From the NCBI GenBank assembly GCA_040954595.2, contig CM082587.2:11351403-11415402 (forward strand): a stretch of DNA of 64,000 nt. Direction: 5' to 3'. This stretch comes from Balanoglossus misakiensis (taxonomy: Eukaryota > Animalia > Hemichordata). The notes below the pieces were generated by a model. It did not search any database. It was not told where the DNA came from and saw only the letters and a program-made list of their open reading frames with translations. The position numbers were made by a program, and so were the translations under genes. Positions 9,001 to 45,628 of this stretch are shown here, piece after piece (the first letter of the stretch is position 1; the number at the start of each line of letters is the position of its first letter).

Positions 9001-9560
9001 CCCCCCCCTTCATTATATGCGGTACGCCGATGTCAGCTTACCCGGCAGTACTGCAGGCCGTGCCCCCAACTAACGTCGTTTTAAAATAATGCAGTCCTAC
9101 CCGAACAAATGTCGAGTGTTGACCCGCTGTGACTTTCCCTCTTCGGTTTGCCCGACTTAGCCAACGTCTTTGTACTAGAGTGTCGGGTCTTTTGCAGAGC
9201 CAGGCCGAAGGAAATCCGACTTGATCACCGTTGCTAACGAACGCTAGTGTCTGTCATGGTGTGCCGGGGTTTTAGTCGAGCCAGGCCGTAGGAGATCTGA
9301 CTTGATCATCGTGGTCAATGTACGCGTGTTTCCGCTCTAAAGTGCCGGGGCTTCAGCTGAGCCAGGCCGTAGGAAACCCGACGTGATTACCGTTGTTAAC
9401 TTACGCCAGTCTGTGTCCTATATATAGTGCCGGGGCATCAGCCGTGCCAGGCCGAAGGAAATGTGAGTAGATCAACGTGGTCTCTGTACGCGTGTTTCTG
9501 CTCTAGAGTGCCAGGGCTTTAGCCAAGCCATGCCGTAGGAAATCTGACTTGATCAACGTT
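1..9560. repeat. ~2.05-kb macrosatellite array, block 1 (about 4.7 units)
   Basis: The marker AAAATG(G/A)TAATTTTGTCTTGGG recurs near 1, 2052, 4101, 6148 and 8152. Units are near-identical; each has an AT-rich half, a poly-C tract and an 81-bp subrepeat half. Confidence 0.98.
1040..1935. repeat. 81-bp subrepeat region within the macrosatellite unit (about 11 copies, alternating A/B types giving a 162-bp dimer); one example shown
   Basis: CCG(T/A)AGGA..TCTGACTTGATC recurs near 1100, 1181, 1262, 1343, 1424, 1509, 1590, 1671, 1752, 1833 and 1914. Copies alternate between ...GTTGCTAACGAACGCTAG... and ...GTGGTC..TGTACGCGTGTTTC... Confidence 0.92.
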
Positions 9561-9593
9561 AACACGATTGGAAATATTTTGGGATAATTGGAT
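9561..9593 (+). repeat. Left TIR of the giant transposon
   Basis: AACACGATTGGAAATATTTTGGGATAATTGGAT is the reverse complement of 33903-33935 except at one position. Confidence 0.96.
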
Positions 9594-9851
9594 ATAGGCA
9601 AAATGCACATAAAATCTTTGTATTTGACTGAAGCTGCAGTACTTTGTTGGTAGCTCTTGTTTTTTGAATGAAAATTTTGTGAATTGCAACATTTATAACA
9701 AACAGACATTACAGAATATGATAAAATGAAGAAATTAACAGCAGTTACATTTACAAAAAGACAGTTCATGCTTTTTTGCTCACATTTGTCCAATTATGCA
9801 AAAAATTGTGTATTTTAAAAATACACACAGAAATATGCAACATAATAGCTT

Positions 9852-11826
9852 GATAGAGGGTCACGATGGAAGTGGCCTTCAATGCTACTGGATAGAGGGT
9901 CACGATGGAAGTGGCCTTCAATGCTACTGGATAGAGGGTCACGATGGAAGTGGCCTTCAATGCTACTGGATAGAGGGTCACGATGGAAGTGGCCTTCAAT
10001 GCTACTGGATAGAGGGTCACGATGGAAGTGGCCTTCAATGCTACTGGATAGAGGGTCACGATGGAAGTGGCCCTCAATGCTACTGGATAGAGGGTCACGA
10101 TGGAAGTGGCCCTCAATGCTACTGGATAGAGGGTCACGATGGAAGTGGCCTTCAATGCTACTGGATAGAGATAGAGGGTCACATTGGAAGTGGCCCTCAA
10201 CGCTACTGGATAGAGGGTCACGATGGAAGTGGCCCTCAATGCTACTGGATAGAGGGTCACGATGGAAGTGGCCTTCAATGCTACTGGATAGAGATAGAGG
10301 GTCACAATGGAAGTGGCCCTCAATGCTACTGGATAGAGGGTCACGATGGAAGTGGCCCTCAATGCTACTGGATAGAGGGTCACGATGGAAGTGGCCCTCA
10401 ATGCTACTGGATAGAGGGTCACGATGGAAGTGGCCTTCAATGCTACTGGATAGAGATAGAGGGTCACGATGGAAGTGGCCCTCAATGCTACTGGATAGAG
10501 GGTCACGATGGAAGTGGCCCTCAATGCTACTGGATAGAGGGTCACGATGGAAGTGGCCTTCAATGCTACTGGATAGAGATAGAGGGTCACAATGGAAGTG
10601 GCCCTCAATGCTACTGGATAGAGGGTCACGATGGAAGTGGCCTTCAATGCTACTGGATAGAGGGTCACGATGGAAGTGGCCCTCAATGCTACTGGATAGA
10701 GGGTCACGATGGAAGTGGCCTTCAATGCTACTGGATAGAGATAGAGGGTCACAATGGAAGTGGCCCTCAATGCTACTGGATAGAGGGTCACGATGGAAGT
10801 GGCCCTCAATGCTACTGGATAGAGGGTCACGATGGAAGTGGCCTTCAATGCTACTGGATAGAGGGTCACGATGGAAGTGGCCCTCAATGCTACTGGATAG
10901 AGGGTCACGATGGAAGTGGCCTTCAATGCTACTGGATAGAGATAGAGGGTCACGATGGAAGTGGCCCTCAATGCTACTGGATAGAGGGTCACGATGGAAG
11001 TGGCCTTCAAAGCTACTGGATAGAGATAGAGGGTCACGATGGAAGTGGCCCTCAATGCTACTGGATAGAGGGTCACGATGGAAGTGGCCCTCAATGCTAC
11101 TGGATAGAGGGTCACGATGGAAGTGGCCTTCAATGCTACTGGATAGAGATAGAGGGTCACAATGGAAGTGGCCCTCAATGCTACTGGATAGAGGGTCACG
11201 ATGGAAGTGGCCCTCAATGCTACTGGATAGAGGGTCACGATGGAAGTGGCCTTCAATGCTACTGGATAGAGATAGAGGGTCACAATGGAAGTGGCCCTCA
11301 ATGCTACTGGATAGAGGGTCACGATGGAAGTGGCCCTCAATGCTACTGGATAGAGGGTCACGATGGAAGTGGCCTTCAATGCTACTGGATAGAGGGTCAC
11401 GATGGAAGTGGCCCTCAATGCTACTGGATAGAGGGTCACGATGGAAGTGGCCCTCAATGCTACTGGATAGAGGGTCACGATGGAAGTGGCCTTCAATGCT
11501 ACTGGATAGAGGGTCACGATGGAAGTGGCCCTCAATGCTACTGGATAGAGGGTCACGATGGAAGTGGCCTTCAATGCTACTGGATAGAGGGTCACGATGG
11601 AAGTGGCCCCAAATGCTACTGGATAGAGGGTCACGATGGAAGTGGCCCTCAATGCTACTGGATAGAGGGTCACGATGGAAGTGGCCTTCAATGCTACTGG
11701 ATAGAGATAGAGGGTCACAATGGAAGTGGCCCTCAATGCTACTGGATAGAGGGTCACGATGGAAGTGGCCCTCAATGCTACTGGATAGAGGGTCACGATG
11801 GAAGTGGCCTTCAATGCTACTGGATA
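9852..11826. repeat. 39-bp minisatellite (roughly 49 copies; some units 45 bp from an extra GATAGA) just inside the left TIR
   Basis: Unit GATAGAGGGTCACGATGGAAGTGGCC(C/T)TCAATGCTACTG. The unit length is divisible by 3, which explains the four long repetitive ORFs in the track. Confidence 0.98.
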
Positions 11827-14800
11827 ATTTTCTGACAAAATAACAAACATAATACATGTTTTAAAATTGTATCACACACTTATTTATTTATAAAACACTG
11901 CTAGAAAGGTAAATGACCAGTAATATATATATATATATATAAAGAAATACAATCATTAAAATATTAAAAATGTCAGTCATATCTTACAAGCTTTACTTTT
12001 GTATGAGTCTCAAATGTCTTTAATTGCAAACCTCTTGACTACTTTAGCATCTGTAAAAACACTGTAAATGAGATGTGTCCCCTTTGTTCAGAATTTGTAC
12101 AATCACTTATAAAATATGTACATGCCATGGGATTCATTATTATATATACGTGTACTTGAACAATTTGTAGGACTGTTGGACTTTCACACGACAACTTTGG
12201 TCAGTACTGGTATGAAATTTATCACATGTTTGGCATAACTGAGCCAAGTGTGAATTTTAGCTCAACAAAAGATTAAATATTTCACATAATACAATATAAA
12301 TTTCGTACAGCTTGAAATTAGTGTTTGATATTAAAATGACATATGGAACTTGGTTGTCTATGCCAGAGTTCACAGTGGCTTCACTGTACGCTAAATATAT
12401 AAGATGCATTTGGGTAGACCTGTCTTTAATGTTCTGAAGATAAAGTTTATAAAGTCCTACGGTTTGATTTTCAGCAAAATCATGCATCTAATGGTTGGTG
12501 AAAAAAACGTATTGAGATACCAATCGCCTGGCGACATATATACCAAATTACACTTTGATACCCCCTCCCCCACAATAATAGGCATTGAAATCTGTTTCAA
12601 GACCAGTGAGTGGAGTCTGTTGTCTGTTGTTTTCAGTCACTTTCTACCATCTCTTGCTGTGCTTCATGGTAGCGTTCCTTCAATGTTGTTTGTGTGGCTT
12701 TGGGTAGTACACTACCTTGTGTTAACTGAAAATCCCAAAAAATGGCAGATTGTATCCACACAGTTTCAACATTTGGCTTTCTGTTTCGGCCCGCTCCACA
12801 AAAGGCTGGTTTCCACAAAGCAGACCAAGAACCTGAATACCAATGCAGCTGAAATGTTTCCTCTTCTGAGTTTACAGCGACAACTTTTCCAAGTTGAGGG
12901 ATTTGTTTTAAACTGGGAATGTACACAGCCACAAACATATCTTCCTGTAACGTTTCAAAGTTGTCAACATTCAAGACTGCATTGGTATCCAATCCATTCC
13001 TATTGTTACAATCTCCTTGGTCATTTGTTGCCCTACTAATTGGTCGTGGTGTCCTTCCAATAATGACCTATTAAAAAGAAAAAAAAAGAATAAAATACTT
13101 TTAGAGGTCTTTTTTATAAGATTGATAAGATTTAACACTTTATTTATCACATTGAGTTTTCACTTTTCATAATTTTTCTTTCCAAAATGACTTTGCTATT
13201 AACAATAAAGAAAAAAAATCATGATCAAGCCTGTCATGAAAAATAGTCCCCTTTAAAGGTGAAGTTACCCTTTAATTTAGCTTTTCTAGTTGAAATGGCT
13301 GATAGTCTAAAAGAGAATTGAATTTTTTTCAGGCAAACTCCAAACCCAGGGCAAGTTCAGTCTAGCTGAACCTAATTTTGGCATGTACAGACATCTACTC
13401 CTTTGCCGTCGACAGGAATAATTTTACTTTGCCAATATACTAAGTACGTGCTGCCCACATTAAAGGGACAAAGTCTCTCTCTTAATTAAAACATAAGTAA
13501 AACATTTTATTTTCGCAAGTTGAATTTTTGAATTTTTCACTTGTGTGTTTCTGCAAGTGGGATGGAAGTTGTGTGTGGTTGAATGTTGATTCACTATATA
13601 TCCACATGTACATTTTCAGAACACTATTTATCATTAGTGTAATTCTGTCTTGAACCAGTGATAGTTACAATTAAAATGCTACTTACATCATCACACTCTC
13701 TTTCAATTCTTGTCCTGATCACTTCAAGGTGGCTTGGTAGTGTCTGTTCTGTTTCCATTTGCCTTCTTTGGTCTGCTGCTTCAATCAGATCATGGAAAAA
13801 CCATGTTGTTGGTCTGTTTGGTGGAACCTACAAGTGAATCAGAGTGCATAATATATAATTATCCACGAAAGAAAAACTCGAGCAGTTAGGAAAACGCTTA
13901 TCTGCAACAAGCCATGTCTTCAAATTTATCATGTTCTTTGCGGCGGACACATGAACTGACAGATAGATGGGCAGATTGACCATACCCCCCTCCCCCAGGA
14001 CTGGACAGAGCCCAGTCCCCCTGACGCTGTCCGCAAAGACTAAGAAAAATTGTGAGTTTATAGTTAATTCACCACTCAAAGGAATTATGCTTTTCAAAAG
14101 GAATGTTATATTGCATGTTCTTTCTCTGCAATATGTGTTCTGAAAATAACTGTCATATCCAGTATGCCTTTTATGTCTGAAGTATAACACACCTATTCAT
14201 ATATTTCAACATTTTCCACAAAGTCCCTCAGGCACTCTCTGTCAGCATCCCTGGGTATTCTCCATTCATAACTGTCTGGGATATCCTTCTTTAGCTTCAC
14301 AGGGTCCATTTTTTCTATGCATGGCTGTACAAAATCTGGAACGTCATTGATATCTGGCACACTCTATGAGATAAACAGCATGTACATTGATCAGTACTAC
14401 AATTTTAAAATATTTTCAGTTCAGGCAAAAGGATTTTTGTAAATTGTAACTGGTGGAAATATTTTGATTCAAAATTGCCCAATTGCTCTCATGATATGAC
14501 AGAAGTCGATCTCATTAAAATAAGTTTAAAAATGTCAAATCAGCTCAGTACTAATATTGCATGGTCCCCCTTTTCATGTTACGTCTTCAGGGCACTGCAA
14601 ACTTCTATATTGATGCATATAAATCATATAATATAAATACCTGTAAGCACTTTAGCCCCAAACTTTCATCAATTGGTGTGGTGGTTCCCTGCTGATACTG
14701 GACTGTTGGCCTCCAGACAGATGTAGAGTAGTGCCGATAACGCATTCTGGTCTGCCCATCTACTTTCTTGAACTGAAAACACAATGGTTTCGACTGTCCT

Positions 14801-14859
14801 CTGAAATATTTGCTCATGTGTGGGACCAACCACTTTTTAATATCAAACACATGAGTTAC

Positions 14860-17255
14860 TGTCGATCATTGTGCAATAAATCCACAGCTATCAACGAATT
14901 CCTGCAAGACTGTCATTTGGATGTTTTAATGCTTGCTGAAACGTGGCTTCGTGACGATGACAGTGATTCATCCCTCATCAATGAAAATCTGCCACCAGGC
15001 TATAGCATCATCAGTGTTCCGCGTAAAGGTCGTGGGGGAGGCATCGCTACGATTTTTAAATCTTCACTGTCAGTGTCACAATGTCCACCTTCTACCTCAA
15101 TCAAGTCGTTTGAATTAATGGAGGTACGTATAAAAACTCCATCGTCGCATATCACACTAGCCACGGTTTACCGTCCTCCTCCGAATAAAACAAATGGTTT
15201 CACTGTTGATGACTTCGTTAATGACTTCACTGACTTCTTGTCTTCTCATCTCACCAACAACGCCCCTCTTGTCATCACTGGCGACTTCAATTTTCATATT
15301 GACAATCTGAACTGCCCAAATGCCCGGAAATATCATGACATGTCGGCCTTGTTGACGAGTGCTCAGGTAACCAAAAACAATTATTCAAGGTCGTAAAGGG
15401 ACTGCTTGGTCACAATAACACATCCACTGTACTACCAAAACATGATGATTCTCTGGAATTAGCAAATCGTTTTGCAAAATTCTTCATTAATCGCGTAAAA
15501 TCACTAACTATAAATATGGGCAATTCCATTCGACATCATTCACAACCACAAACTGAATTGAAATCCGATTGTCGCCTTAATGCCTTTGAGCCTACAACAG
15601 CTGATGAAATTGACAAGGTTATTCGTGCATCGCCTTCATCTACTTGTCGCCTTGATCCGATTCCTACCAAGATCTTCAAACATTCTGACATTTTACAAGT
15701 TTTGTTACCACATATCACAGAAATCTTCAATAACTCTCTGCAGTATGGTGCTGTACCTCCTCATTTCAAGGAAGCCATCGTTAAACCTCTACTTAAAAAG
15801 CCATCTCTTGATCATGAAGTTCTCAAAAATTTCCGTCCTGTATCCAACCTGCCGTTTTTGTCGAAGATCCTGGAACGTGTTTTTGCCAAGAGACTGACTT
15901 CTCACATTGTCAACCATTCATTGGACGAGCCTTTGCAATCTGCTTACAAGCCAGGACACAGTACTGAGACTGCTCTCCTCAAAGTAACAAATGACATTTT
16001 GCTTGCTCTTGATGAAAAAAGAGATGTTTTCTTGGTATTACTCGATCTTTCCGCAGCATTTGACACTGTGAACCATACCATTTTACTCAATCGCTTAAGA
16101 GACCGCTTCGGTCTCTCAGATACTGTTCTCATGTGGTTTAAGTCATACCTTTCCAATCGTAGTCAGTGTGTACTTGTAAATTCCACCCAATCACCTTTTT
16201 ATCCGCTCGACACTGGGGTACCACAGGGATCAGTTCTTGGTCCCATACTTTTCAATATGTACACGTCTCCATTAGGTGAATTAGTTCAAAGTCATGGTTG
16301 TCTTTATAGTTTTTATGCAGATGACTCTTCACTTTATATGTCTTTTAGTAAAGACAACGCAGCAAGAACTGTTTCAAATCTTGAACTTTGTATTTCTGAT
16401 GTTAGGTTTTGGATGTCTGAAAACTTCTTGTGCTTAAACGATGATAAGACTGAATTTGTTATTTTCTCTGGTATTTTGGGTGATCTGTCTGCTAGAGGGA
16501 TTTCAGAAATTCGTGTTGGCGATTCTCTGATTCCCGTCCATTGTCAGGCTAAGAGCCTTGGAGTGATCCTTGACTCTTGTCTGACAATGAAGCCACATAT
16601 TAGACTGATCTGCCGCTCTGCCACTTTTCATTTACGTCGCATTGCGCTTATCCGCAAATATTTATCTCATTCAGCTACAGAGCAATTAGTTCATGCATTC
16701 ACTACGTCTCGAATTGATTCATGTAATTCACTTTTATTTGGGCTCCCGAAGTATTCAATCAACCGTATCCAACGCGTTCAGAATATTGCTGCTAGAATTG
16801 TAACTCGTTCTAAAATCACCTGTCACATCACTCCAATTTTGTATCAGTTGCACTGGCTACCTGTTACAGAGCGTATTGTTTTTAAGATGTTAGTTCTCAT
16901 TTTTAAATCCATTCATAAACTTGGTCCAATCTATCTTTCTAGCATGACTAATCTATATGTTCCATGTCGCAATTTAAGGTCAGCTGATCAGTTCAAACTC
17001 TGCCCTGTTCGATCACGCACCAAGAGTTATGGTGATCGTGCTTTTACTGTTGCTGCTCCAATTCTTTGGAATAATCTTCCACTCACCATTCGCCAGGCAC
17101 CAGACTTATCTGTTTTTAAATCAAATGTTAAAACTTTACTTTTTAAATCTGTTTTTTAGCCATTTGTTGTATTGTACTTTTGCTTTAAGCGTCATTGATC
17201 ACATTTTTTTGTGGATACTGACGCTATACAAATAAATTATTATTATTATTTATTA
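14860..17255 (+). mobile_element. L2-clade LINE, 5'-truncated and internally deleted, inserted antisense in transposase exon 7
   Basis: APE endonuclease fragment (CRSLCNK, LAETWL, GGGIA, VYRPP, GDFN) followed by RT. AATAAA and a (TTA)n tail at 17231-17255. TTAC flanks both sides (14856-14859, 17256-17259); excision restores KHVTHVFDIKKWL. The endonuclease C-terminus (TLDL/SDH motifs) is missing near 15330-15370. Confidence 0.93.
15516..17159 (+). CDS. Reverse transcriptase portion of L2 ORF2
   Basis: NFRPVSNLPFLSKILE, HSTETALLKV, LLDLSAAFDTV, GVPQGSVLGP, YADD, HITPILYQLHWLPV, GDRAFTVAAPILWNNLP. Confidence 0.93.
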   Translation: MGNSIRHHSQPQTELKSDCRLNAFEPTTADEIDKVIRASPSSTCRLDPIPTKIFKHSDILQVLLPHITEIFNNSLQYGAVPPHFKEAIVKPLLKKPSLDHEVLKNFRPVSNLPFLSKILERVFAKRLTSHIVNHSLDEPLQSAYKPGHSTETALLKVTNDILLALDEKRDVFLVLLDLSAAFDTVNHTILLNRLRDRFGLSDTVLMWFKSYLSNRSQCVLVNSTQSPFYPLDTGVPQGSVLGPILFNMYTSPLGELVQSHGCLYSFYADDSSLYMSFSKDNAARTVSNLELCISDVRFWMSENFLCLNDDKTEFVIFSGILGDLSARGISEIRVGDSLIPVHCQAKSLGVILDSCLTMKPHIRLICRSATFHLRRIALIRKYLSHSATEQLVHAFTTSRIDSCNSLLFGLPKYSINRIQRVQNIAARIVTRSKITCHITPILYQLHWLPVTERIVFKMLVLIFKSIHKLGPIYLSSMTNLYVPCRNLRSADQFKLCPVRSRTKSYGDRAFTVAAPILWNNLPLTIRQAPDLSVFKSNVKTLLFKSVF

Positions 17256-20200
17256 TTACATGTTTCACGAAGACAGGTACATTATAACAGCCAGTGATAA
17301 TCCGCTCCATATCTGCAGACAAAAAAAATCACAGGGGTGTTTAATAGGTAATAATATTCCTGGTTTCAGATCAGGCTGTACCATTATATTACCTTGAGGA
17401 CAACAGTAAAATTGTGCAGTTCCAATAACATGCTTTACACAAGTGCATCAGGCATATCAGAATGACTTTAATTGGATTTTTTTCTCCTGTGGTCTTCCAT
17501 GCTTTGAAGGCATCCAAACTATAAGCCAGTTCCTTCATATCACCAAACAGCCCGTGATATCATTATAACATATCTCCTATTCTCTATATCATTATTACAT
17601 ATCTCCTATTCTCTAGATCTAACCTTTTATTTTACTTTTGAACACTGACCTGAATGATGATTGTGTAGATATTGGCCCTACTGTATCTCAGATTCTACAC
17701 GCTTAGAATGAGAGTTCTAATGACACTAAAATGATTACTTGTCTGTCATTCTGTGCTGAGAACACCAGAGTTATATTCAGAACACAACACTTCCTGTTTT
17801 GTGATTGTAGTTTTTTAACCAATTATAGACAAATATGTCTGTCATCCAAATTTCAAAGCAATTTGGCAAGCCAATTCAGAGTGGATTCTTTACCATATGT
17901 GAAGAAAATTGCCAAGATACAAAATTAAGAAAAGTATATGAAGTCTCAACCTTAGGTACCTGTTCACCAATTTGCCTAGTAGTGAGATTTTATTTTTGAC
18001 CATTTTTACACGTTTTTGTTTACTTAATTGCATATTTTTGCAGATTTAGAATATGAACTATAAAGTAGCTGATTTTATCAGTCAAAAAGTGATAATCATA
18101 CAATCTTAATCGAAAGTTGATGACAACTGTCTCACCTGCCATAGTATACACATTTGTCTTCCGGAGTAGTTTACTAATGCATGAGAACAGTTGATCAATA
18201 TCTTCATGTGTGTGTCCAACTGGTAGGAAGTGGAAGTCAACCTGCAAGAGAACACAAAAGAACTCATTCAATCAGTTTTAAGGGGTATGTTTACGTATCT
18301 ATCAAAACTATGTATTCAATACACTTCAACATCGATGGAGCATAAGATTGACAGTTATGCGCAGGGTCGACACATGTCAAATATATATATACATTCAATG
18401 CATAGTGTAGCATAAACAATGTCATGTTCAAAATCATGAAGTGACAATATCTGACTTGAAAGAAACGTACATTTCTACTGATTTCAAAAAAACATGATCA
18501 GCATATACTTGACGAACTGCATGAGATATTAAACTAAATTCTATCATTAAAATTTATACACTCATAAGAATGATTAACATTTTGCAATTGTAAGAAAAGG
18601 GCTCCTACACACATCAGCTGTTCACAGGGGTGAGCAAATTCATTGGTCTAAGGTCTGGGACTAATATTTATGCAAGGTTAAACCACAGAGATTTTTTTTG
18701 TCTGGTCTGATGGACCCACTAACATAAAGTTAAAAATCAAAGAAGTGACAACTGCCAGAGCCTTTGACTGTAACAGGGGTGTGAGAGTACCCTTTTGTTC
18801 ATTTGAAAGGATTTGATCTGTCATGAACAAACCCCGAGTCCAGTTTACATCAAGTTTAAAAGGATAGCAGCTCTAACTTTTGAAAATAAGTTTACTCTAT
18901 TCATGTTACACATTGTGACCTGTTTGTCTAAATAACTATACTGAATCATGCAGAATCACCTGATGACTGACCTCAGTGAACAACCTGTGGCAATTCCTCA
19001 TACCCAAATGGACAGAAATTAAACAATGGGGACAAACGATATGCAATGTAATTGACCAACAATATAGTAATGGTACAGTTTGCATGCAACTGTACATGAA
19101 GTAAATAAATTATTACCTGGTCAAATATGTTCAACTCAACCAGAAGATGTCCAAGAGACAGCATGTATCTATTCTTGTTCTCCCGGTAACAATTGTCCAT
19201 CTGGGCAAACAATCTCCTTGATAGTCTGACTTTGTTGTCTACTAAAGTCTGCAAAATGAGGTTCATCGACAGATTGCTGTCATGTGGAAAGTTCAGTACA
19301 TCCAAATACGCTGGCACTATCTTGCCCCCTGGTACATTTGTGTGAATGATATTTCCTAAAATGTAAAAATATGAATGTGTAGGTGTTCAGTAAAAAACAA
19401 ACGGAGCAAAAGATAATTGACTGACAATAATTCATGTGTAACACAGTGGGGTACATTTGCACAACAAAACCTCATGATGTGTCATTTGACTGACGTACAC
19501 ATAACCAAAGAAAACATACAGATGCCATGGCCAACCAACCCTTCTAAAATCTTATCTTACCAGTAAGATGAAGTCTTATACGAGCAAGACATGCAGTCAA
19601 CTTGTCATTCTCAACAAGATGGGGAATACAGGTTTTTGCTTGGTCCATGCCATCTTGGATTATACACATTACTTCATCTGCCTCTTTTCTAGCTTGTTCT
19701 CGTGTATTGTGGTACACCCGTCTTTCAATCCTGTAAAGAAACAATGAAAATATAATTGTGTACACAACATACATATTTTTCATTGAGTTAAACCTGCATT
19801 TACACCCTACGGTAATGAAAACAGTCCATTTTAGTAAAAGTGACTATTTCAGAAAAACTCATGAGCTGGTCTGTAACATTAAAGAGATTTTCAGGGGTTA
19901 ATTATAGTCCATTCTATCAAATCGTCATGAAAGCATACCGGTACTTCTCAATTAAAACTGAATAAAAAATATTTCTAAAGACATTTGTCAAGCTTGTCCG
20001 ATTACATTTTCATACACAATCTAGTTTTTTTTAGTTCCCCAAACTGTATACTTACTCAACCTGCTGCACATGTGTGTCAATCAAATTCTTTATCTTCTCT
20101 CTTTCCGTTGCTGTTCTTGCCCGAGCAAGGTCCTCCTTCAGCTGAACACATATGCTACATTTCACAAATTCTTGACGCTGTAAAATCAGAAAAAAAATCA

Positions 20201-23200: not shown

Positions 23201-23872
23201 TTTTGGTCAAAAACTGTCAATATTGCTCAAAATATCATATTACAGCTAATCTCATTGGCTATCATTTGAAACTACTTTCAAAGCTTAGTACCTATTGGCT
23301 CTCGTCCACGATTGTGTGCAGTCGGCCCAAGTGGAAGTTTCCCCGAGGGAGACAAAACACAGCATGCTATATATTACGTGAATAAAATTACTCAGCTTAT
23401 AGAAAATAACTTCAATGAGCTACTTTGCCAAGTTGTCAGAGCGAGAAATTGTCATTTTAGAACTACGGAATATTTTACTGTGTACGGCAGTTCGTGTAGC
23501 CGCCATATTGGATTCTGAACTCCCTACTTTCAGTCAAGTGTGAAAACTGGACGCTGAAAGTGAAAAGAGTTATTAGACAAGTGACTAAAAAGAAAAGAAA
23601 ACAAAATCATCGACAAAATAACTGAATCCATCTTGTTCGGGTGTACTCTGATCTGGTCTCACTTACAGAAACATGGCAAATTCAGACATACACAAGAGTT
23701 AGAACTGGTTCGCCCGAGCGAAAGTAACAAACATTGTGTACACACTGAAAACTCAACTCACCTCCTTCACTGCAGTGCTCCGAAGTCTTTGGCCTTTAAA
23801 AAACTCTCAAAAACCTTCTAGAAAAACGATGACAGACGAACGACGACGATTAATACGATAGACAAGAACTAA

Positions 23873-24680
23873 GGCTGCATTCACAAACACCTCTGGAGGG
23901 GGGGGGGGCAGGAGAATTGAGGGGGGGATTTGAAAAAATTAAGGGTATGTAAGGGGGGGATTTGAAATAATTTAGGGACTGAAAGGGGGGGACTTGAAAA
24001 CTTTAACGACTAAATATTTATTTTGAGTCCACAAAAATGCAGTTTCGCGCCCTTTATTTTACAAAATTTTCTAATGTGGGAGGGGGACACCCCCTCCCAC
24101 ACCCACCCCCTCCATTCATCAACACCTTTCAATCATTGACTGGTTTATCTAGTGTCCCAGGTCAGGGGACTTGCCCCCACCCCATGATAACTTTGAGCGG
24201 CGACGGTTAAATTTGTCCTCCCCAACATACCGGTAGTTGGAGTTAATTTGCTTTTGCCGGGTTCATTAAAATGCAGCTTTGAGCTCTGTATTTTAGAAAA
24301 TTTTCTTACGTGGGAGGGGGACACCCCCTCCCAAACCCACCCCCTTCAATTATCGGTTTACAATGTCTCCAAACACAGAATACAAATATATGTACTTAAA
24401 AAATAAAAACAATGTTCAGTTTTAATACCCACTGATGAGGGGAAATATCAGTTTCAAATTCTTTTCATGGGAGTGCTGTTTTTCTTTTTACAAGATAGAT
24501 AGGTGATGTGTTTTGCTCTGTGAAAGAAAATGGGGGGGGGGGATTTCAAAATTTTGGCAGTTCGGAAAGGGGGGATTTGAAAATATTGGCAGTTTGGAAG
24601 GGGGGCATGTGAAAATTAGCGGTAAAAAAAATTGAATTCTCCCGCCCCCCCCCCCTCCAGAGGTGTTTGTGAATGCAGCC
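23873..24680. mobile_element. PIF/Harbinger-type MITE (808 bp) nested in the giant transposon
   Basis: TIR GGCTGCATTCACAAACACCTCTGGA(G)nC.GGAGAATT at both ends (~45 bp). 3-bp TSD TAA at 23870-23872 and 24681-24683. G-run-rich interior with an internal duplication near 24063 and 24297. Confidence 0.88.
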
Positions 24681-27600
24681 TAAAAGTAGGTATGCAAGAA
24701 ATATCTGTTAAATGCGATCGTAAACGATGGCGAGCGTGAGCGTTTGCGTAGCGATGTTGACGTATGAACGTGAACAGCCGGGAGTAACCTTCGCCTTCAG
24801 CAAAGACAGATTTCGCTTCCTTCCACCGGAAGCTGATTCGACCGTTCCAGATGTGTGTGTGTGTGTGGGGGGGGGGGGGGGGTAGGTGTAGCCAATCGGC
24901 AACCCAAATGTATATGTACGTCTCATTCTAAAGATCTAGTGAATAATATCACTTTCCTATGAGTAACGAACTAAATGAAACCATCAAACGAGTTAAAGAA
25001 TGGACAAATAATTGTACAAATTTGTCATTTATACGTATAGGCACACTCGCTCCAAACACCTGAGATAACCATCATTGGTTTAGTCCTGGAGGTGCCTGTG
25101 AGGTTTAGTCTAGAAACACCTGGGACCGAGACTATATACAAACTGTTTATTTCGAGGGGTCCCGATTCACACCTCCAGTACATGATGAGGCCAGGGGGGT
25201 ACCCTGGTCCCAATATTCACACCTATTCACACCATGCGCGTACCAGCTGGTTATGCGTGGTACTGGAGTGGTAAACTCCTGAGGGGGGTGGGGGTAGGCC
25301 TAAGTAAGAGTCTGTTTTTTGTACCGTACTTTCCCTATCGTGTATTCTGTATTCTAACATTTCATTTAAACTTCTTGCAGATCATTCCGTATTACAGTGT
25401 GGTATAAATAAAAGTGTCAAGCTCGAAAAACCCATTTCGCTGCTTTGTCTGCGGACAGTGCCGTTCATATCGAACCATTTCATCCCTCTGAAGCGAGTAG
25501 CTAAGCTGGGACTAAAACCAAAACTATTCCTACTGTCATCCCCGTAGCTTCCTACCAGAAATCTGGAGAAGCCAACGTTTCTGATTAATTGTCACCGGAT
25601 TAGTGTTGAAGTTTGGTAACCAATTCACAGGAGCCCAGGGGATAACTTCAAGATATGCAAATCTGAGTTTTCGAAAGTTAGGCTAGCAGCAAAAACAGGA
25701 AGTTTGACAGGCATACTTTGTCAAGCGACTTCCAGCATGATTGTCAACTATGGCTTCCATCAGGACCCGATCATCATGCTCCGTGGCATAGACTAATTTA
25801 CCGGGCACAGAGCAATGAAACACCCCCAAATGTACAATTACTAAAACATGTTACTGTAGGAGTGAGAAAATAAGATAAAAATGGGTTTTCAGAAGTGTAC
25901 ACTAGTACTTAACGGGCTAAGTGTGTACTTAACGGGATTAGTGTCATTTCGAGAAGTTATCAGTGTCGGGGATTAACAGCCCCGTGTTTGCTGTATAACA
26001 AATCAATATTGTACTCTGTCAGTAATGGTGTCGTTTTTCCCCGATTCTCCCCCGATTTATGAACGTGCACAACGTTCTAGATTAAAATGGCTTGTTCTCA
26101 AGTCTCAAGTATTATACTACTTCATTAAAACATAACAACACAGTGAGTAAGTACTATTTATGATCGTTTTTATGCAAAAAATTGACAGTTGGCAATTCAA
26201 AAGTCTCATTGTTCGAAAACAAAAGTGAATAAGTGAATATCAAAATTCCATGGTAAGTTATTTTCTCCAATATATCCAGGTGTCGATCACCTGGAGGCAC
26301 TGTCTTTTTATTTACAATTCTTTGAGTAAACATACTGAAAATTGTGCATTTTCGCAAAACAGAAAGAGAACCGAAAATTAAGTAGGCCTATAAAGCTAAC
26401 AGAAAATATATATTGTGTCGGGGGAAAACATGAAATATAAGGAGAAATAAACGATTAAAAGCAAGTGTCATTAAACCTGGATCTCAATCTGAAATCACAC
26501 CCGATTTTCACCCCATTTATTAAAGTTCACTCCCGAGTTACCCTGCGTACAGGTCTGTGTGTGTGCTCCCGGCGTTACACGGCCTCCACCACGGCCCTGC
26601 ACGGCTCCATAGACAAAACTGGTGCGTCCGGGCCGCAGCTTTTCAGCCGAAATTCGATGTTTGCGGGGGGAAAATCCTTTCCCTGTCTACTTCTAACACC
26701 TAAACAAGTCCAAATATGATGTGATTTACTTCTTATAACGTCCGAATCGCTCGCTTTCTAAAACCTTTGTGTTTAGGCCTACCCATGGAAATAAACTCGC
26801 TGTAGGCCTGGGCCTAAGCCTGTATGCAATATGTCTATCTCAACCGGTAACCGTGTAACGCCGGGAACACACAGACCTGTACGCAGAGCTAACTCCCAAG
26901 AAAAAAAGTTTTAGGGTGACCGGGAACACATTTATTTCTCATTCTCGCCAGCAAGAGCTGCCTTTGGCCTATTTTTCGCAACACGAACCTACGGAAAACA
27001 AACTCCTTCTGTTGAAATAAAAAGAGTTTACTAAGTACTAGTATAGGCTTCGGCCGGCGTTCGGAGGGACGGTGAGGGCACGTAGCTGTTGCCACACTGT
27101 ATAAAGAGACTTGTCTTTCTATGTTCGGGTTCACAATTACGGTCATACCCTATATGGTGCATCATGCAGTTGCATACATTTTGATTTACTGATTTCCCCG
27201 TTGAAGAGTGGAGGAGTGTTAATTACACCAGCAAATATTGTCCAACACATCTAAAACATTTATTTAATGTATAGGCCTATATCGATTATTAGTACTTTTG
27301 CAGTCACAAATACATGTACTCCCAGATCCTATGTACGTGTACAGGTGTGTGCCACGGCTGACACCATGACCTTTAAAATGCAAATATTCCCTGGGAGGTG
27401 AAATGTCAATGCGGATTGACTTAATTATGCAAAGCGTCGCCAGCCTCGTCGGCGACATGGGCTTCTTGTTGGTGTATATAAACTTGAACTTGTACAGTAT
27501 GAATTCAGAACACGACGAGAGCTCAGTGATTGCCTGTCCAAAATGCCTAGAGCGCGCCGTTGGTGGTTCGAACGGGAAAACGATGCCGTGTTTGTATATT

Positions 27601-28957
27601 TCGACTACAAGGACAGTGGCCCCTCAAAACTTCATCCGAAAAAGAAAAGCACTCCATACAGCGCAGTAAGGACAGTTGTAGCCTATGATAGTGGTGCCCA
27701 TGCCGAAAAAACGATGACTTTGTCAAGGTAAGTATTTAAGGTCTTATCTTGCTTCAGTTCCGGTCGTGATCCGTTTATTTAGCCAACTTCAAAAATGGGC
27801 GCCATTACAAATGCTTGTGGTATCCCTAGACTAGGCACAGTCGACTGGGAGTTGGATCGTATACACGGCGCAGTGTTTACGACCCAACTCCCAGGCGACT
27901 GTGCTCCAGGCCACTGCGATGTAATATTTCTGGTCTCGTACTCTCAAATTCATTGAATCGTATGTGGCTATGCAATACTCGATCAACGATCGCGTTTCCC
28001 AAACCAGCGGCGTTGATCGTGTACACAAAGCTAATGAAAAGTATGGGTTTTGCATCATGACGTCATAGCCTTAGCCCTGCGTTGTGTAGGTATGTGAGTT
28101 CCCGGGCTTTGAAATGACTTTTAACCTGACGACGTGACGTCGTCGAACGTGTTTGGGACCCGAAAAAGGTACAACATTGGCGTAACATTGTCTTTGAAAA
28201 TTGGAAACCAGAAAACACTAGGGCCTCGCGTAGTTCTCTACATACCCAGCTAAAGCAGGGGCGTTATACATGGGCCAATCAGTTTTTCAAATCAGTTCTA
28301 GCTTTTCTTGTGCACCTGACCACATTCAATAAACCACATTCAATAACATGCCACAGATTGAAAAAAAAAACTGACCAGTTTTGTATTGTTGGGAATCCAC
28401 TGTGCTGCTGACTATGCCATACATGTATGTTCATGTGAATTTCTTATTTGCCGTGGCCGGCCATTGGCTCAGTGAAAAGCTTAGTCTTGGTATTTCCCCT
28501 AGACCTTCTTTCTGGAGTGCCCAAAGGGAGAAAAAGAGGAGTCTGGGTAACCAAGACTATGATAAGGGTTCTTTTAAAAAATCGCAAAACATTATGGGGC
28601 AATCGGAGGGGTAAACTGGGAGGCATGTCACTGGAGCCATATTGTAGATGTTGCACCAAGAAACAACGCTATTTTCAATCTTTCTCCCACAGAACCATCA
28701 TTCAGAGTTCAGATTAAGTTTATAATCATATCGTAATGCTGTGGGATTTTCAAGATGGATTTGCCCATATGTCATAACAGCATCGCTCAAACCCTAAGGC
28801 AACTGCAGCAACATCTTTGCAAGCAAAACATGTTTATTTTGGTGCATAGACTACCAGACCACTCAAGCTAAGCTGTGTAGATTTATGTTGGTGCTGTGCA
28901 TGATGTAGTAACTTTTGAAACTATAGTTCACTAACAAACTGTTATTTCTCATACTAG

Positions 28958-31900
28958 ATTGTATTCAGTCTTCCAGTTGAAAATCCCTTCAAGCTCTCTC
29001 GTTCATCGTTCACCTGGAACAAGAGTGAATTTTCTCGGAAATTACGAGATTATCAGACTCCAGTTGACTTCGCAGAAGAGTTCAATAGGCTGCTGGAATT
29101 GGAAAAAAATCAAGATGGGGAGACAAGTTCATCACCGTGCAGTACTATGTCTGTGTCAAGTGTGGAATTGTCTGATGAAGATGACATGGATGAAGAGGAA
29201 GATTGCCCAAGTGTAGAGGAAAATAACCCTAGTTCAGAACCAAATACCGCAGGGTAAGTGTTGAGGCTCACAAATATATTGTCAGTTTAAAGTAACCAAA
29301 CCTACCCTATAGGGATAAACTGTGTTTACGCCATCTTGGAAATTTGCAGTGCATTATGGGTCAATTGAGTTCCGGTTTGGGGGGAGTAGCGTCTACAACC
29401 TATCCAATTTTTCAGCGGTTTAGTCAAATTTTCTTCATGTAACTACAACTACTAACGTTACTTGAAGAAAATCTGACAAAATCGCTGGAAAATTGGATAG
29501 GTTGTAGACGCTACTCCCCCCCAACCGGAACTCAATTGACCCATAATGCACTGCAAATTTCCAAGATGGCGTAAACACAGTTTATCCCTATAAACATTTT
29601 TTGAACGACTTGAAATTCCTGTGAGAGTCCAACATGATTTTTGGCTTTAACATTTTCTACAGGTAAATTTCTAGCAGAACACAGCAGATAAATATCTGGC
29701 AATGGACATGTCATGAAAGATGCAAAATGTGTCATGTTTTCTTTCTAGATTAAAACCATGAGTTCATTTCATCTTTGAAATTGCAACATAATCAGGGACA
29801 TATTGCTTGATAAGTCTCTCACTAGACTTTTATGACAATGATGAACTCAAAATGTGTTTAAGAATGATGCATGATGTCTGAGATGCGTGAAACTACGTTT
29901 CTTTCCTACTTATCTAAAAATTTGCTTCTTCACAAAAAGAAGTAATTCTGTGTATTTTTTCTTTTATCCAGAACTCAAACTCCAAGGAAAAAAAAATCAA
30001 GGAAGAGGAAAAGGCTGTGTGATCAAGCCAGAGCACTGGCCATACCATCTCTACAAAAGCGAAAGAAAATACACGAAAAGGTTGCTGAAATTGACAAAGA
30101 AACCGAAGCGATGAAGAAAAGTATCAGAAGTTGTCATATTGGTATGTAAACGTGAATCAAGCTTAGACACTAGAAGTGGCAGCTTGTATCTTTCTAGAAA
30201 GACTTGTTTTATACGGTGGTAACTAAATTCAGCTAGAAAGTCCCATATTGTAATACGTGCACGGCTGAAGCAATATTGTGTGCATTTTAGCAATAAACTT
30301 GTAACAGTAACTTACAGTAACAATATCAATACAGAAAAAGATTTTCTGTTTTTATGAGTAATCTTTGTGAATATAATTGACAATGGTATTTGATATTTCA
30401 CCATTTCATAGGAACATATCTTATAAGCATCAAATCAATGGAAGTTGGAAAACAAATCCGTGAAGTAAATGAAGATTGGGTAAGGCACCTTCAGGAGTAT
30501 ATGGAGGAGTTCTACAACGAAGCATATCAGCCACTTGCTGTCGTTTTGAAGGGAGAAACCAAGCTAAACTTCAGAGACAGCAATGTAAGTGCAAAAAATG
30601 TATATTACTGTAATACAATTTATTTCTTATTTCTAAGGCTAACAAGGACAGTGGTTTTATTGTTCATTTGCATGATCAGTCTGATTTATTTGGACAGGTT
30701 TATATGTTATGCCATAATATTCTTTGCTCCTATTTGGGATATGTATGGCAAGCTAAGTTCCTATTGGCTGGAAAATGTACATTTGCGTACATGTATATGA
30801 CATAATAGTTTCCTCTACAAATATTTTGGAAACAATGGATGGATCATCTTTTATTATTTTTCTAGTTGCACACTGGATTGAGATTTTGTTTGACACTACC
30901 ATCATATTAGCTGAAACAAACATGAGAGTGATCAGTATAAATCTTGAAAACTGCTGGTTGGATTGATTTGAAAATTAGATTCATAACCCATGTTAATTTT
31001 AATGTATATATTAATTGCAAATTTTAGGTCAATGGTTACACTTACGAAGTGATTGGAGACCAACACTCGTATCTTGCTGTAAAGAATCTGGCTGAAAAAT
31101 ACCCCGATAGGGAAGAGCTGCAGTCCAGATATGCTGTGGTGTATGCTGACTTGAATGAGGAGCAGAGACTGTGGTTAGGCAACCAACACAACATCACAAT
31201 GCAACAGCACAGCAAGATGAGCTTTAAAGATAAGGTAATGTGTGTGATGTGAATGAGTGTTATAATGATCATGACAATTACAAATCAAATCCTAATTCAA
31301 CACAGATAAGACAATGTTGGGAAATAAAGTTTTAGGAATTGTAAGAAACATTACATTGCAGTGTTATTGGCTTCTGTCCTAGTCACTATTGTCCTGAATT
31401 TAACAACAAGATTGTACTCTGAAACACATCTTTTAGCTGGTATGCTTTTTAGCTACTTCATATCTGCACCCCCCCAACAAAAAAAAAACTCTTAAAAAAA
31501 GTTGAAACAACACTGACAGAAGTTGAATGATGGAGAAAATTCATATAGCTTTAGTTTTTTATTTATGCACAAATATGATTTTTTGTGAGATCACTGATGT
31601 TCCATCGGCTGACATGTTCACAATATCAAAAATGATTATCATTGGAGCTTGTTTGTTTTAACACAAAAAACTGGTATTCTTCTGCATTTCATCTCACTTT
31701 GCATTCAGGAGCAATTAATTGCTGGGATACTAATTAATATGAAATGTTAGTACACACAGTATTGACTAATAATGGCTGTAATCTATTCTTGTGTTTGTAG
31801 GTCAAAGTGTGTAGAGAACTCTATGAAAGAACAAGAAATGAGGACGACAAAGCGAATTGGGAAAAATCGTGTGCTTTGATTTTGAAAGAGGCAAGTACAT

Positions 31901-33587
31901 GTATTTATATTTGTGCAGCTTTACCATGTTTTCAGTGGTTTTTAATATTTCTTATATTGATTGTAGTCAGACCCGATGTTGTCCTGAAGGAAAATTACTC
32001 CATAGATATCTTATGTCTCTAATTCCTTCCAGCTTTCAATGCTTTTTTACCATGTACAAAAACTCTCCTGATTGATGTCCCAATATGATTTAGAAAATAT
32101 TATGAATGACATTGTGTATATAGAGCTTTAGCTTTCTATGAAAATCAATTTGACAAGGTATAGTATTTGACAATAACAGACGAAACAACCAATACATAAA
32201 CACCTCACACAAATTGGCAAATATTCCTCAATGATTTTTTTTTTTGGATTCCACTGATTTATAGTTACTTATAAATATGTGTGAAATCGGTCTAAGTAGT
32301 ATGATTTTATGACTATACTTGTATGAAAACAATTTTGTAATCATTTTTTTTTTCATTTTACAGAGAGTCAACAGTGCCATGATGCAAACTATTTATGGGA
32401 TTTCATCCATGGTTGAAAACTTTGAGCTGATGATGTCTGTTATAGAGATGTATGAAGATGGGGCAACCAAAGACCAGAAGTTAAAAGGAGAAGAGTATAA
32501 GAATCGACCTGTTCTACCCTACAGCAAACTCCAAGACTTTTTCTGTATAGACACTGAGGATCAGCGCCTGCTGTTGGAAAATGTAATTGACAGCACTATG
32601 TCATATGCTGAAATGTGTAAGGAGGCATCGACTCTGAAAAAGTTAGACATTATACAGAGGAGCTTTTGTCAACAGACAAACTGTTTGGATGGTGGGTGGA
32701 AAGAAGCGACTGAACGATTTCCGAAAGAAGCAAAACGTGAGAGACTGGAGGAATTTACCAAGCTGTCCTTCTCCAGAGGAATTCCAGACGGATTTGTCAA
32801 CTACTGTCAGCGGTTGCTTCTGTTGGAGAAGTACAAAGATAACACGAAAAAGGCTGCAGCATATTCCCAAAATGGGACATATGCTTTTACGATCTCAGAG
32901 GCTGTCCAAAATTTAAATACAGTTCTCCTAAAGGAACACTGCCCAGGGTTTTCTGGCATTGACTTAACATTGATTGATATGCCTAAGGTAAGTTATTTTT
33001 ATTTCAAAATTCTACTCTTGTCACATACATGTTTGCAACCAATTAGCCGTTTCCGTGACCTCTTCATGACCTTACACCCGTGTACTTCCACTGGTATGAA
33101 TCCATCAATTTGATTAAAAGCTCATTAAAAACTATATAACTGTGATTGTATTCACTGATATCTGAATATCACTCAGTCTACAACTTGTGTTCATGGTTAA
33201 TAACAAAAATGATATGGGACCGGCATTAACTGCGCTGTATGAACAACAGCTATTTCTATCTTGTTGAAACTGCCAGTGTCATTCTTGTCAACACTGACTG
33301 TATATACAGTTATCATTGTGAGTACAACTACACAATGACAGTTTTATTAATGACACTCAACGTATTTTTTCTTGTAGGAATGGTCTGTTGATGATATCAA
33401 CCGATTGGTCGTCATGATAAAAGCTGTCAACTGTGATTCACAAAAGAAGATGTATAATATTGCAATAATTTGTGATGTTATGCAGATCAGTGACGTTCTG
33501 GGAGTTCTCAAGAAGGAAAAAAACTGCTACGTTCAACCGGCATACTGCCATGTGGAAAACCGTTCCAGAGGTATTTATTCAATATAA
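28958..33587 (+). CDS. Multi-exon cargo gene: acidic/basic N-region, ParB/Srx-like domain, helical region, degenerate amino-MTase-like segment (5' exon unresolved, 3' end possibly truncated)
   Basis: Phase-consistent, stop-free exons: 28958-29253, 29972-30141, 30412-30584, 31028-31234, 31801-31890 (GC donor), 32364-32987, 33378-33570/33587. Motifs: IREVNEDWVRHL, QPLAVVL, YEVIGDQHSYLA, RYAVVYADLNEEQRLWLGNQHN, MSFKDKV, GIDLTLIDMPK. The exon structure is well supported; domain names are inference. Confidence 0.78.
29308..29592. mobile_element. Fold-back (near-perfect palindrome) MITE in an intron of the cargo gene
   Basis: TATAGGGATAAACTGTGTTTACGCCATCTTGG...CCAAGATGGCGTAAACACAGTTTATCCCTATA; arms of ~135 bp around a ~13-bp spacer. 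A TA TSD is possible; superfamily not assignable. Confidence 0.85.
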
Positions 33588-33902
33588 GTTAGAATAAGGC
33601 CATTTACACATGCTGTTGCAACTTGACAACACTCAAAAATTAAAAATAGGTAAATGATGAAAAAAATGTAATTTCATACATGTAGACATTATTCTATGAT
33701 AGTGGAACCTTTTTAATTTTTCATTATATATATATTCTTTGACATTTATAAAAGTGTTACGTTTGGCTGGATAATATGAAAAAAAATGAAAGAAATTTAA
33801 TTGCACAGCAGAGTGGTTTAAATTAAGCAATTTAACTCAGCCTGTAGTAAAAATTACAGTCTGGTAACATATTTTTCCATCATTTTTGGCAAACTGTACC
33901 AA

Positions 33903-33935
33903 ATCCAATTATCCCAAAATATTCCCAATCGTGTT
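33903..33935 (-). repeat. Right TIR of the giant transposon
   Basis: ATCCAATTATCCCAAAATATTCCCAATCGTGTT, followed by the TSD CGTT and resumed satellite. Confidence 0.96.
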
Positions 33936-39778: not shown

Positions 39779-40112
39779 TGTGGGGAAGTATCGTGGCAGT
39801 GATCAATACTCCCGGGAGGGGGTTCGAGTATACTGACGTCGGAAAAGAAGCGAACGATTCAGTGCTAGGTAAAACACTGGTTTATTACCATCTGAATCCA
39901 ACAACAAAGTAACACCACAGAGCTCCTTACAAAAAGCTGCACGAAAGCGCCAAAACTGGGTTATATATAAGTCCCACGAACGCCGGAGCAAACACTCAAA
40001 AATTACAATAAATCTGCTACAAGTATAAAGTTTGGCGGGAAACAAAGTCAACTCTGATAGGGTAAGAGTTTCCGTCACGTGATCCTTCTGGAGTAAATCT
40101 CTCACTTCTCCA
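39779..40112 (-). repeat. Putative 3' LTR (~334 bp)
   Basis: On the minus strand GCGCGGGGGAGAATA (PPT) is followed by TG at 40112, TATATAA near 39965, AATAAA at 39881-39886 and terminal CA at 39779. There is no second LTR to confirm the ends. Confidence 0.65.
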
Positions 40113-45539: not shown

Positions 45540-45628
45540 CTCCGATTTGTTTTTCTTGATGAAAGATGCGATTCGATGATTGTGTTCGAAGATTTAGGCC
45601 TGGTAGTCGCCTGAAGTTTCATTTTCTT

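Follow-up and report, generated by a model that had tools for sequence, protein, structure and literature searches.

Does the 24-kb insertion in this window, the whole 64,000-nucleotide stretch of Balanoglossus misakiensis DNA that was analysed, belong to a transposon family in which a second gene regularly accompanies the transposase, and what would that gene do? The limits of the insertion are defined by four features:

9557..9560, no strand: left target site duplication (TSD) CGTT, a direct repeat flanking the element
9561..9593, plus strand: left terminal inverted repeat (TIR), 33 bp, starting with AAC
33903..33935, minus strand: right TIR, pairing with the left TIR
33936..33939, no strand: right TSD CGTT, a direct repeat flanking the element

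The 33-bp TIRs are complementary at 32 of 33 positions, and the junction rejoined from 40 + 40 flanking bases matches 10 sister units of a satellite of ~2 kb with one or two mismatches. The TIRs, the CGTT duplication and the restorable empty site claimed in a sequence-only reading of this DNA thus hold, and they are the basis for concluding that the element was mobilised as one unit. It spans 24,375 bp between the duplications and 20,879 bp net of a LINE, an 808-bp MITE and a 285-bp hairpin element, in agreement with the ~21 kb estimated previously. The nested insertions are the following:

14860..17255, plus strand: LINE with endonuclease, reverse transcriptase and a TAT-type tail, with a TTAC duplication, in transposase exon 7
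23873..24680, no strand: 808-bp MITE with TAA on both sides
26557..26876, no strand: short element with inverted repeats, present in high copy number and lying between the two genes
29308..29592, no strand: hairpin element of 285 bp, located within an accessory-gene intron

Judged by its duplication, the MITE is presumably Harbinger-like. The LINE shows high read depth, and a MITE-free form of the element is present in runs X1 and X2. The depth of run X1 is flat and gives no copy number; in run X3 no reads cover the partner gene, which points neither way.

The first of the two genes encodes the transposase:

12633..22049, minus strand: DUF7869 / Sola1-like DDD transposase pseudogene, from Pfam, the spliced model and relatives
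22049-21147, 20711-20556, 20177-20056, 19730-19561 and 19355-19117, minus strand: coding pieces 1 to 5
18241-18136, minus strand: coding piece 6
17312-17258 and 14857-14641, minus strand: exon 7, split by the LINE
14363-14193, 13827-13687 and 13067-12633, minus strand: coding pieces 8 to 10

The spliced model has 10 exons, 9 GT-AG introns and 904 codons. Pfam DUF7869, which we take to be Sola1-like, matches three of the exons (E 2e-22 for exon 5); a literature search found no paper naming DUF7869. Sola1 transposases have a DDD triad within an RNase H core, marked by the motifs DNC..NKN and GH-x5-D, and in our model the putative catalytic residues are D420, D504 and D546; the third motif had been given as GH-x4-D, and its spacing is in fact GH-x5-D. 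DxMD and DN..ENK motifs are present in 22 of the 22 transposase relatives listed. The predicted model of the relative P0184, 42% identical to the window transposase, has an RNase H core with Metnase, Mos1 and integrases as top structural matches (Z 7.5, rmsd 3.0, 162 aligned), the transposase fold scores all being below Z 8. A Foldseek search with the transposase model gave no match at E <= 0.001, and a comparison of viral contigs with the transposase alignment gave 51 pattern matches and no relatives. The motifs, the 4-bp TSD (CGTT here, TTAT in the metagenome locus L004) and the TIRs, whose AAC start is common to the window, L004 and Sola1-1_Ec32 of Ectocarpus, bear out the assignment to a Sola1-like element. 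The frame of the transposase is broken by in-frame stops at codons 250 and 713 (21300-21302 and 14193-14195) and by the LINE in exon 7, and the copy is not autonomous.

The partner gene lies head-to-head with the transposase, on the plus strand:

27543..33570, plus strand: accessory pseudogene with a ParB/Srx-like part, a helical region and the first half of a beta-class amino-methyltransferase fold
27543-27727, 28958-29253, 29972-30141 and 30412-30584, plus strand: exons 1 to 4
31028-31234, 31801-31890 (GC donor), 32364-32987 and 33378-33570, plus strand: exons 5 to 8

With 8 coding exons in the partner and 10 in the transposase, the description of two divergent intron-rich genes stands. The partner carries a one-base frameshift near 27705 and is truncated at 33570, its last ~140 residues missing; both genes being broken, the window copy is dead, a state that the sequence-only reading had omitted. 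Relocation of the missing exons within the window was rejected, as a profile of the last 140 residues gives nothing better than E 5.2 there; the same profile matches five of six metagenome loci (E 1e-4 to 7e-3). Pfam applied to six of the window partner's exons reported no ParB and no methylase family, and a word-index search with its large exon among longer proteins returned 0 of 810 candidates. A full HMMER search with the partner found 175 relatives.

These relatives allow the pairing of the two genes to be followed elsewhere. Four of the nine partner proteins of Ptychodera flava lie within 1-5 accession numbers of a DUF7869-type transposase on the same contig, scored against 13 retrieved transposase loci; this list is incomplete, and the other five partners had no retrieved transposase nearby. 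The adjacency, which is silent on orientation and shared ends, would arise by chance with P about 8e-9 (3e-6 if a narrow range is assumed). The four pairs are XP_070553722/723, XP_070550176/177, XP_070561780/784 and XP_070555382/387. Two of the pairs belong to the window's family (78% / 85-87%) and two to a distant family (30% / 40-42%), and transposase and partner are also paired on one Saccoglossus scaffold (LOC102804474/LOC100377770). Of the six metagenome loci, just two, L002 and L004, extend 10 kb upstream, and in each of them the transposase lies head-to-head with the partner; L001, L003, L005 and L006 (1.8-4.5 kb) contain no transposase and are too short to show one. As L002 and L004 are ~97% alike, they represent one family and one independent lineage. 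L004, from a sponge-like host, is a whole element of 7,271 bp with AAC ends complementary at 25 of 30 positions, a TTAT duplication and an exact empty site. The broken and truncated state of the partner in the window could suggest a host gene captured once or a separate nested element, but this explanation is highly improbable given the pairing at four P. flava loci in two families and on the Saccoglossus scaffold; the partner inside the ends of L004 already contradicts it, and no inner inverted ends or duplication surround the gene in the window. The P. flava pairs and L004 uphold the earlier proposal of an accessory factor: the second gene is a regular passenger of the Sola1-like transposase. 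"Giant", on the other hand, does not describe the family, L004 having merely 7.3 kb (with a deleted transposase); the length of the window element stems from its introns, array and nested elements.

The fold of the partner is seen best in its relatives. The window partner is 30% identical to Saccoglossus P0152 over codons 3-643 (E 7e-78), and P0152 carries Pfam N6_N4_Mtase (E 6.6e-14). In the predicted model of P0152, residues 199-322 match the ParB/Srx fold (PadC Z 10.9, rmsd 2.4, 94 aligned; Z 8.9-10.9 over PadC, Srx and KorB) and align to exons 4-5 of the window partner, whereas residues 520-763 match a beta-class methyltransferase (CcrM Z 21.4). Full-length relatives of ~770 aa are thus predicted to combine a ParB/Srx domain with a beta-class amino-methyltransferase. 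The earlier label of a ParB-like and methyltransferase-like cargo gains the ParB part and the fold from these relatives; of the methylase fold, the window copy itself contains the first half only. CTP-hydrolysing ParB proteins have an arginine-rich CTP box, G-x-x-R; the box of the partner reads GDQH, GGQH or GGCH followed by a non-arginine in the window and in 7 of 7 relatives where it was read, and the arginine-rich box of a ParB CTPase is absent.

The catalytic motifs bear on whether the partner methylates DNA. Canonical motif IV, (D/N/S)PP(Y/F/W), is found in none of the 113 aligned partner rows, a count that may include decayed copies and gene models and is no tally of active elements. The position reads DMPKEW in the window and mostly D-x-P-x-x-W in the spliced partner models. 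Motif I, the SAM-binding loop that follows motif IV, is absent from the window partner and worn in P0004, P0048, P0157, P0173, P0120, P0212 and L004; among the 10 relatives scored for this pattern it is intact in three, P0152, P0007 and P0155, and some relatives may therefore bind SAM. Could the partner be an active N4-cytosine or N6-adenine methyltransferase, with D-x-P-x-x-W as a variant site, that marks its own element for control of expression or transposition? Such a role is proposed by the Ectocarpus authors (PMC12477816), and it would suit the whole beta-class fold of P0152 (Z 18-21 to CcrM, PvuII and the rotifer N4C enzyme), the intact motif I of the three relatives and the recurrence of the D, P and W of motif IV in 13 rows, which range from hemichordate proteins to one of a sponge. 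Set against the lack of canonical motif IV and the wear of motif I, we nevertheless regard it as unlikely, if the strongest of the alternatives. Because of these two observations we favour a partner that is more pseudo-enzyme than methylase, the intact motif I of P0152, P0007 and P0155 being the counterpoint.

The subterminal repeats suggest another function:

9852..11826, no strand: subterminal array on the 3' side of the transposase, at a distance of 291 bp from the left end; 49 copies of a unit of 39 bp, in some cases 45 bp

The palindromic array described earlier is present, but its unit is an imperfect and weak palindrome, with 9-bp arms matching at 8 of 9 positions around a 7-bp spacer; 80 of 3000 shuffles gave a palindrome as good, and the predicted folding of the first unit does not surpass that of shuffled sequence (z -1.14). 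At the right end, the 365 bp between the TIR and the last accessory exon contain no array. L004 has 17 and 16 palindromes in arrays ~300 bp inside its two ends, a distance similar to that in the window, and none elsewhere in the locus. A likeness between the units of the window and L004 was discarded, the shared 5-base core being too short to count.

Transposase-bound subterminal repeats are common in other superfamilies, and the arrays could likewise be binding sites of the transposase, the partner being a long-carried passenger that serves shared-promoter regulation or host chromatin. ParB-type accessory genes occur also on unrelated Plavaka elements (bioRxiv 10.1101/2025.02.11.637652), so the tie of the partner to the Sola1-like transposase is not exclusive. 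The same comparison weakens the passenger role, as two transposon types that are not related to each other both combine ParB genes with arrays of spaced palindromes. This is more in keeping with recognition of the ParB type than with a site specific to one transposase, and we consider a partner unconnected to the arrays rather improbable.

Our preferred explanation, to which we assign a probability of roughly 60%, is that the window holds a dead member of an animal family of two-gene, Sola1-like transposons, in which the partner binds the end arrays and is more pseudo-enzyme than methylase. The DDD transposase would cut at the inverted ends starting with AAC, and the partner, with its ParB/Srx-like and methylase-like folds, would bind the palindrome arrays near both ends and help to hold or mark the element, acting as a DNA-binding pseudo-enzyme. 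Array binding is the likely role of the partner; counterpoints are the weak palindrome of the window array and the fact that it has no more than a 5-base core in common with the L004 array. An internal deletion probably removed the 3' exons of the partner together with a right-hand array, decay following then or later, and the copy would have moved solely in trans or before the damage. If the deletion preceded insertion, the ends stayed mobile without the right array. A broader scenario is speculative and doubtful: an old Sola1-like clade of animals, from sponges to acorn worms, might have its own parS/ParB-like system, in which a phage-derived ParB-methylase loads on the palindrome arrays of both ends and bridges them for the transposase; some lineages might also use the variant D-x-P-x-x-W site to place a 4mC or 6mA mark of bacterial type on the element.

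Transposase, head-to-head partner and end arrays form a conserved animal module, shared by hemichordate and sponge-like DNA, with proteins that are about 28-40% identical, and matched pairs of proteins and arrays with differing array sequences make the array-binding proposal directly testable. About 175 unannotated proteins are likely transposon genes, and if any partner is an active methylase, deuterostomes would have in it a mobile source of DNA marks of the bacterial type.

The design had been put forward as a candidate for an undescribed system, but a 21.5-kb Ectocarpus Sola1 element of the same design is already published (PMC12477816), and the two-gene architecture had in part been described before. 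Sola1-1_Ec32 has 21,549 bp, a 4-bp TSD, AACCG ends and a gene for a ParB-like and N4C/N6A methyltransferase protein on the opposite strand. It thus shares with the window element the Sola1 type, the size of ~21 kb, the 4-bp TSD, the AAC start and an opposite-strand ParB-like/methyltransferase gene inside the ends, which is whole in the relatives and truncated in the window copy; the proteins are likened by domain description. The host is a brown alga rather than an animal, the ends are 282 bp and imperfect rather than 33 bp, and the partner has 1104 aa against ~770 aa in full-length animal relatives. The supplement MOESM3 calls the extra gene Ectocarpus-specific, whereas we find its kin across animals, and the available text of PMC12477816 makes no mention of arrays, which are present in the animal elements.

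Plavaka (EnSpm/CACTA) elements of the red alga Bostrychia (bioRxiv 10.1101/2025.02.11.637652) carry PAG2/PAG3, and their ParB-domain accessory gene goes with tandem inverted-repeat arrays proposed as binding sites of its product. A large DNA transposon, a ParB-domain accessory gene and inverted-repeat arrays are common to both; Plavaka differs by its transposase superfamily, the fusion of ParB to a 2OG oxygenase, the methylase as a separate gene and arrays that adjoin PAG3 and are not described at both ends, as they are in L004. The algal papers propose, each for a single family, that a ParB-type accessory protein binds and modifies its own transposon.

Phage ParB_N + N6_N4_Mtase fusions, CcrM, RsrI, PvuII and bdelloid N4CMT have the same domain order or folds as the partner (atlas scores of 0.83, leads only), but the partner is an intron-rich eukaryotic gene with a long helical insert, a non-canonical motif IV and an arginine-free ParB box. 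Iyer et al. 2016 (PMC4738411), in the available text, derive eukaryotic N6A-methylases from phage ParB-terminase loci and name a ParB-HTH fusion family; this is the group-2 "chlorophyte-type Dam" of chlorophytes and chytrids, in contrast to our animal partner, and we found no permuted ParB-fused animal clade in that text. A literature search, with Repbase, Dfam and most subscription papers outside its scope, brought up no publication that describes such a design for an animal. The design itself is known; its spread in animals, the two-ended arrays and the non-canonical catalytic motif are new.

The transposon lies in a higher-order satellite together with other mobile elements.

Satellite and mobile elements in the window
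9561-33935, transposon of 24,375 bp within the ~2-kb satellite bearing 81-bp subrepeats
1070-9560 and 33936-55500, higher-order satellite, ~2,048-bp period, composed of 81/162-bp subrepeats and unique spacer
39784-45628, body of a BEL/Pao-type LTR retrotransposon inserted in the satellite, open 1768-codon frame (Pfam)
55680-59204, LINE directly beyond the end of the satellite block, open 1174-codon endonuclease and reverse transcriptase frame

The terminal 33 bases of the transposon are complementary at 32/33 positions, CGTT flanks it left and right, and the rejoined junction (40+40 bases) matches 10 sister satellite units with 1–2 mismatches each. These ends, the duplication and the matching empty sites bear out the boundaries claimed in the sequence-only reading, and because of them we conclude that the element was inserted, both genes included, as a single unit. 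Its size net of a nested LINE, an 808-bp MITE and a 285-bp hairpin is 20,879 bp, as the earlier estimate of ~21 kb had it. A 961-bp insert at 37472-38432, with a 53-bp hairpin close to its start, interrupts the satellite unit almost where the 24-kb element does, following GATCAACGT, and this position is a possible insertion hot spot. A quick self-BLAST found no LTR pair flanking the BEL/Pao-type body.

The minus-strand transposase model has 904 codons in 10 exons with 9 GT–AG introns. Three exons match Pfam DUF7869 (E 2e-22, 2e-13 and 2e-4), presumably the Sola1 transposase domain. The motifs DGMD (D420), DNCYRENKN (D504) and GH-x5-D (D546) are consistent with a DDD triad, in which these three would be the catalytic aspartates. 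The structure model of P0184, a Saccoglossus relative 42% identical to the window transposase, has an RNase H-type core that most resembles those of Metnase, Mos1 and retroviral integrases (Z at most 7.5); Foldseek with the same model returned nothing at E ≤ 0.001. Given the element ends and established knowledge of RNase H transposases, the DDD transposase would move the element by cut-and-paste with a 4-base stagger. The closest proteins, at 77–87%, are from Ptychodera flava, which makes a hemichordate host likely. The window gene is dead, since codons 250 and 713 are stops (the second of them is Gln in the P. flava relative P0161) and a LINE, accompanied by a TTAC duplication, sits within exon 7. 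The C-terminus (window 12633-12900, last exon; P0184 residues 690–770) is modelled as a small barrel, a feature shared by P. flava, Saccoglossus, Acanthaster and the metagenome loci L002 and L004; weak matches to BAH, Tudor and SH3-type domains (Z 5.5–6.0) suggest that it is possibly a chromatin-reading or DNA-binding tail.

The element is present in two sequencing runs from one sample, and since contigs in both bridge the 808-bp MITE site, a sibling copy or allele without the MITE exists. In a third run, annotated "DNA?", pieces coincide with exon edges (14191-14363, 20556-20708) and bin depth is compatible with a spliced contig (4.5 observed against 4.49 computed), which hints that the window transposase or a near-identical one is transcribed.

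The plus-strand partner model has 646 codons in 8 exons, with a one-base frameshift near 27705 taken as X. Its large exon as query gave 175 proteins at E ≤ 0.001, the named relatives among the 23 clusters looked up being from P. flava, Saccoglossus, Holothuria, Halichondria and Lineus. Aligned with the full-length Saccoglossus relative P0152 (768 aa), it covers residues 10–629 at 30% identity (E 7e-78). P0152 matches Pfam N6_N4_Mtase (E 6.6e-14), and its structure model (mean pLDDT 71) contains a predicted ParB/Srx domain at residues 199–322 (PadC Z 10.9, Srx 9.4, KorB 8.9) and a predicted beta-class amino-methyltransferase at 520–763 (CcrM Z 21.4, rotifer N4CMT 18.0). The window partner is without the final ~140 residues, including the SAM-binding motif I; neither tblastn nor a profile found them in the window, the same profile being positive in 5/6 fetched loci.

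These folds would allow the partner to be a putative active 4mC/6mA writer working through a variant site. Motif I is intact in three relatives and worn in at least six, and the canonical motif IV, (D/N/S)PP(Y/F/W), occurs in 0/113 aligned partner rows; D-x-P-x-x-W, as in the window, is found in 13 of these, most remaining rows being calls of one exon, cut off by the intron that follows the motif's fourth residue. We consider an active writer unlikely. The ParB box reads GDQH, GGQH or GGCH, its arginines absent. An intron directly 3′ of D-x-P-x (window 32987/33378 junction) recurs in most relatives, splitting the catalytic motif. The best feature matches of P0152 in the protein atlas are two Streptophyta clusters (0.89 and 0.86), and DUF7869 proteins are also present in liverwort; the gene pair may occur in land plants too.

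We assume here that accession numbers run in genomic order. Counted against 13 retrieved P. flava transposase loci, 4/9 accessioned partner proteins have one within 5 accession numbers on an equal-sized contig (XP_070553722/723, 550176/177, 561780/784 and 555382/387), an adjacency that carries no orientation information and would arise by chance with a probability of ~8e-9 (3e-6 if a narrow range is taken). Of the four pairs, two are members of the window's family and two of a family at 40–42% (transposase) and 30% (partner); the remaining 5/9 have no neighbour among the retrieved loci. One scaffold of Saccoglossus (956,762 bp) carries a transposase and two models of the partner. Scanning metagenomes with 13 fragments of the partner as queries gave six loci, and in both that have 10 kb upstream (L002 and L004) a DUF7869 transposase lies head-to-head with the partner, the other four being too short to show its presence or absence. 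L004 holds a whole relative:

5272-12542 of L004, whole element, ends starting with AAC and complementary at 25/30, TTAT duplication

Its empty site restores a 39-bp tandem unit exactly, and the head-to-head linkage inside inverted ends that had been proposed as a check is found here. L002 is a ~97% sibling with a different left flank; the partner of both is closest to a sponge protein (ParB part 47–50%, against 28% to the window). Identity to the window descends in parallel for the two genes over matched core windows (97/79, 58/34, 58/35, 51/32 and 41/28%). The P. flava pairs, the shared scaffold and the two metagenome loci back the second gene as a regular accessory, and we regard a one-off capture as highly improbable. 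Positions 1-4300 and 16310-20606 of L004 are a near-identical duplication around the element (16.3-kb period). Both whole elements (n = 2) sit in tandem repeats, of 81-bp and 39-bp units.

In L004, units of ~31 bp that contain a strong, spaced palindrome form arrays ~300 bp inside each end, with 17 and 16 palindrome copies, 0 elsewhere in the locus, and folding z scores of −6.1 and −4.8 against shuffles; the left array is present in L002. The window array, on the same transposase side, begins 291 bp inside the left end. Of the palindromic array noted there earlier, the array stands, with 49 units, and the palindrome proves weak (8/9, equalled by 80/3000 shuffles; first unit z −1.14). No right-end array was found in the window element; the simplest reading is that a single deletion removed the partner 3′ exons and the right array from this copy. 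We favour, at a probability of roughly 0.6, a putative ParB-like partner that would attach to the end arrays, its methylase fold likely serving as a scaffold. A putative role away from the arrays seems rather improbable.

The window element is thus real, this copy is dead, and the family is regularly two-gene. Its candidacy as an undescribed system lapses with the accessible text of PMC12477816, which describes Ectocarpus Sola1-1_Ec32 (21.5 kb, 4-bp TSD, AACCG ends) with a ParB plus N4C/N6A methylase gene on the opposite strand, and proposes a class of accessory proteins that bind and modify their own element. According to the portions available, ParB genes adjoin inverted-repeat arrays in Bostrychia Plavaka elements (Bostrychia preprint), and eight curated bivalve Sola1 families average 5,445 bp (PMC10294476). 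The accessible parts of PMC4738411, PMC6431247 (where "Sola" occurs 0 times), PMC4455052, PMC5751038 and bioRxiv 2021.09.26.461848 hold no animal case, and literature searches, their scope exclusive of Repbase and Dfam, found no animal report of the two-gene design. As far as the Ectocarpus description goes, the algal and window elements have a common design, a Sola1-type transposon with a ParB-methylase gene; it is known from algae, and its documentation across animals is new.
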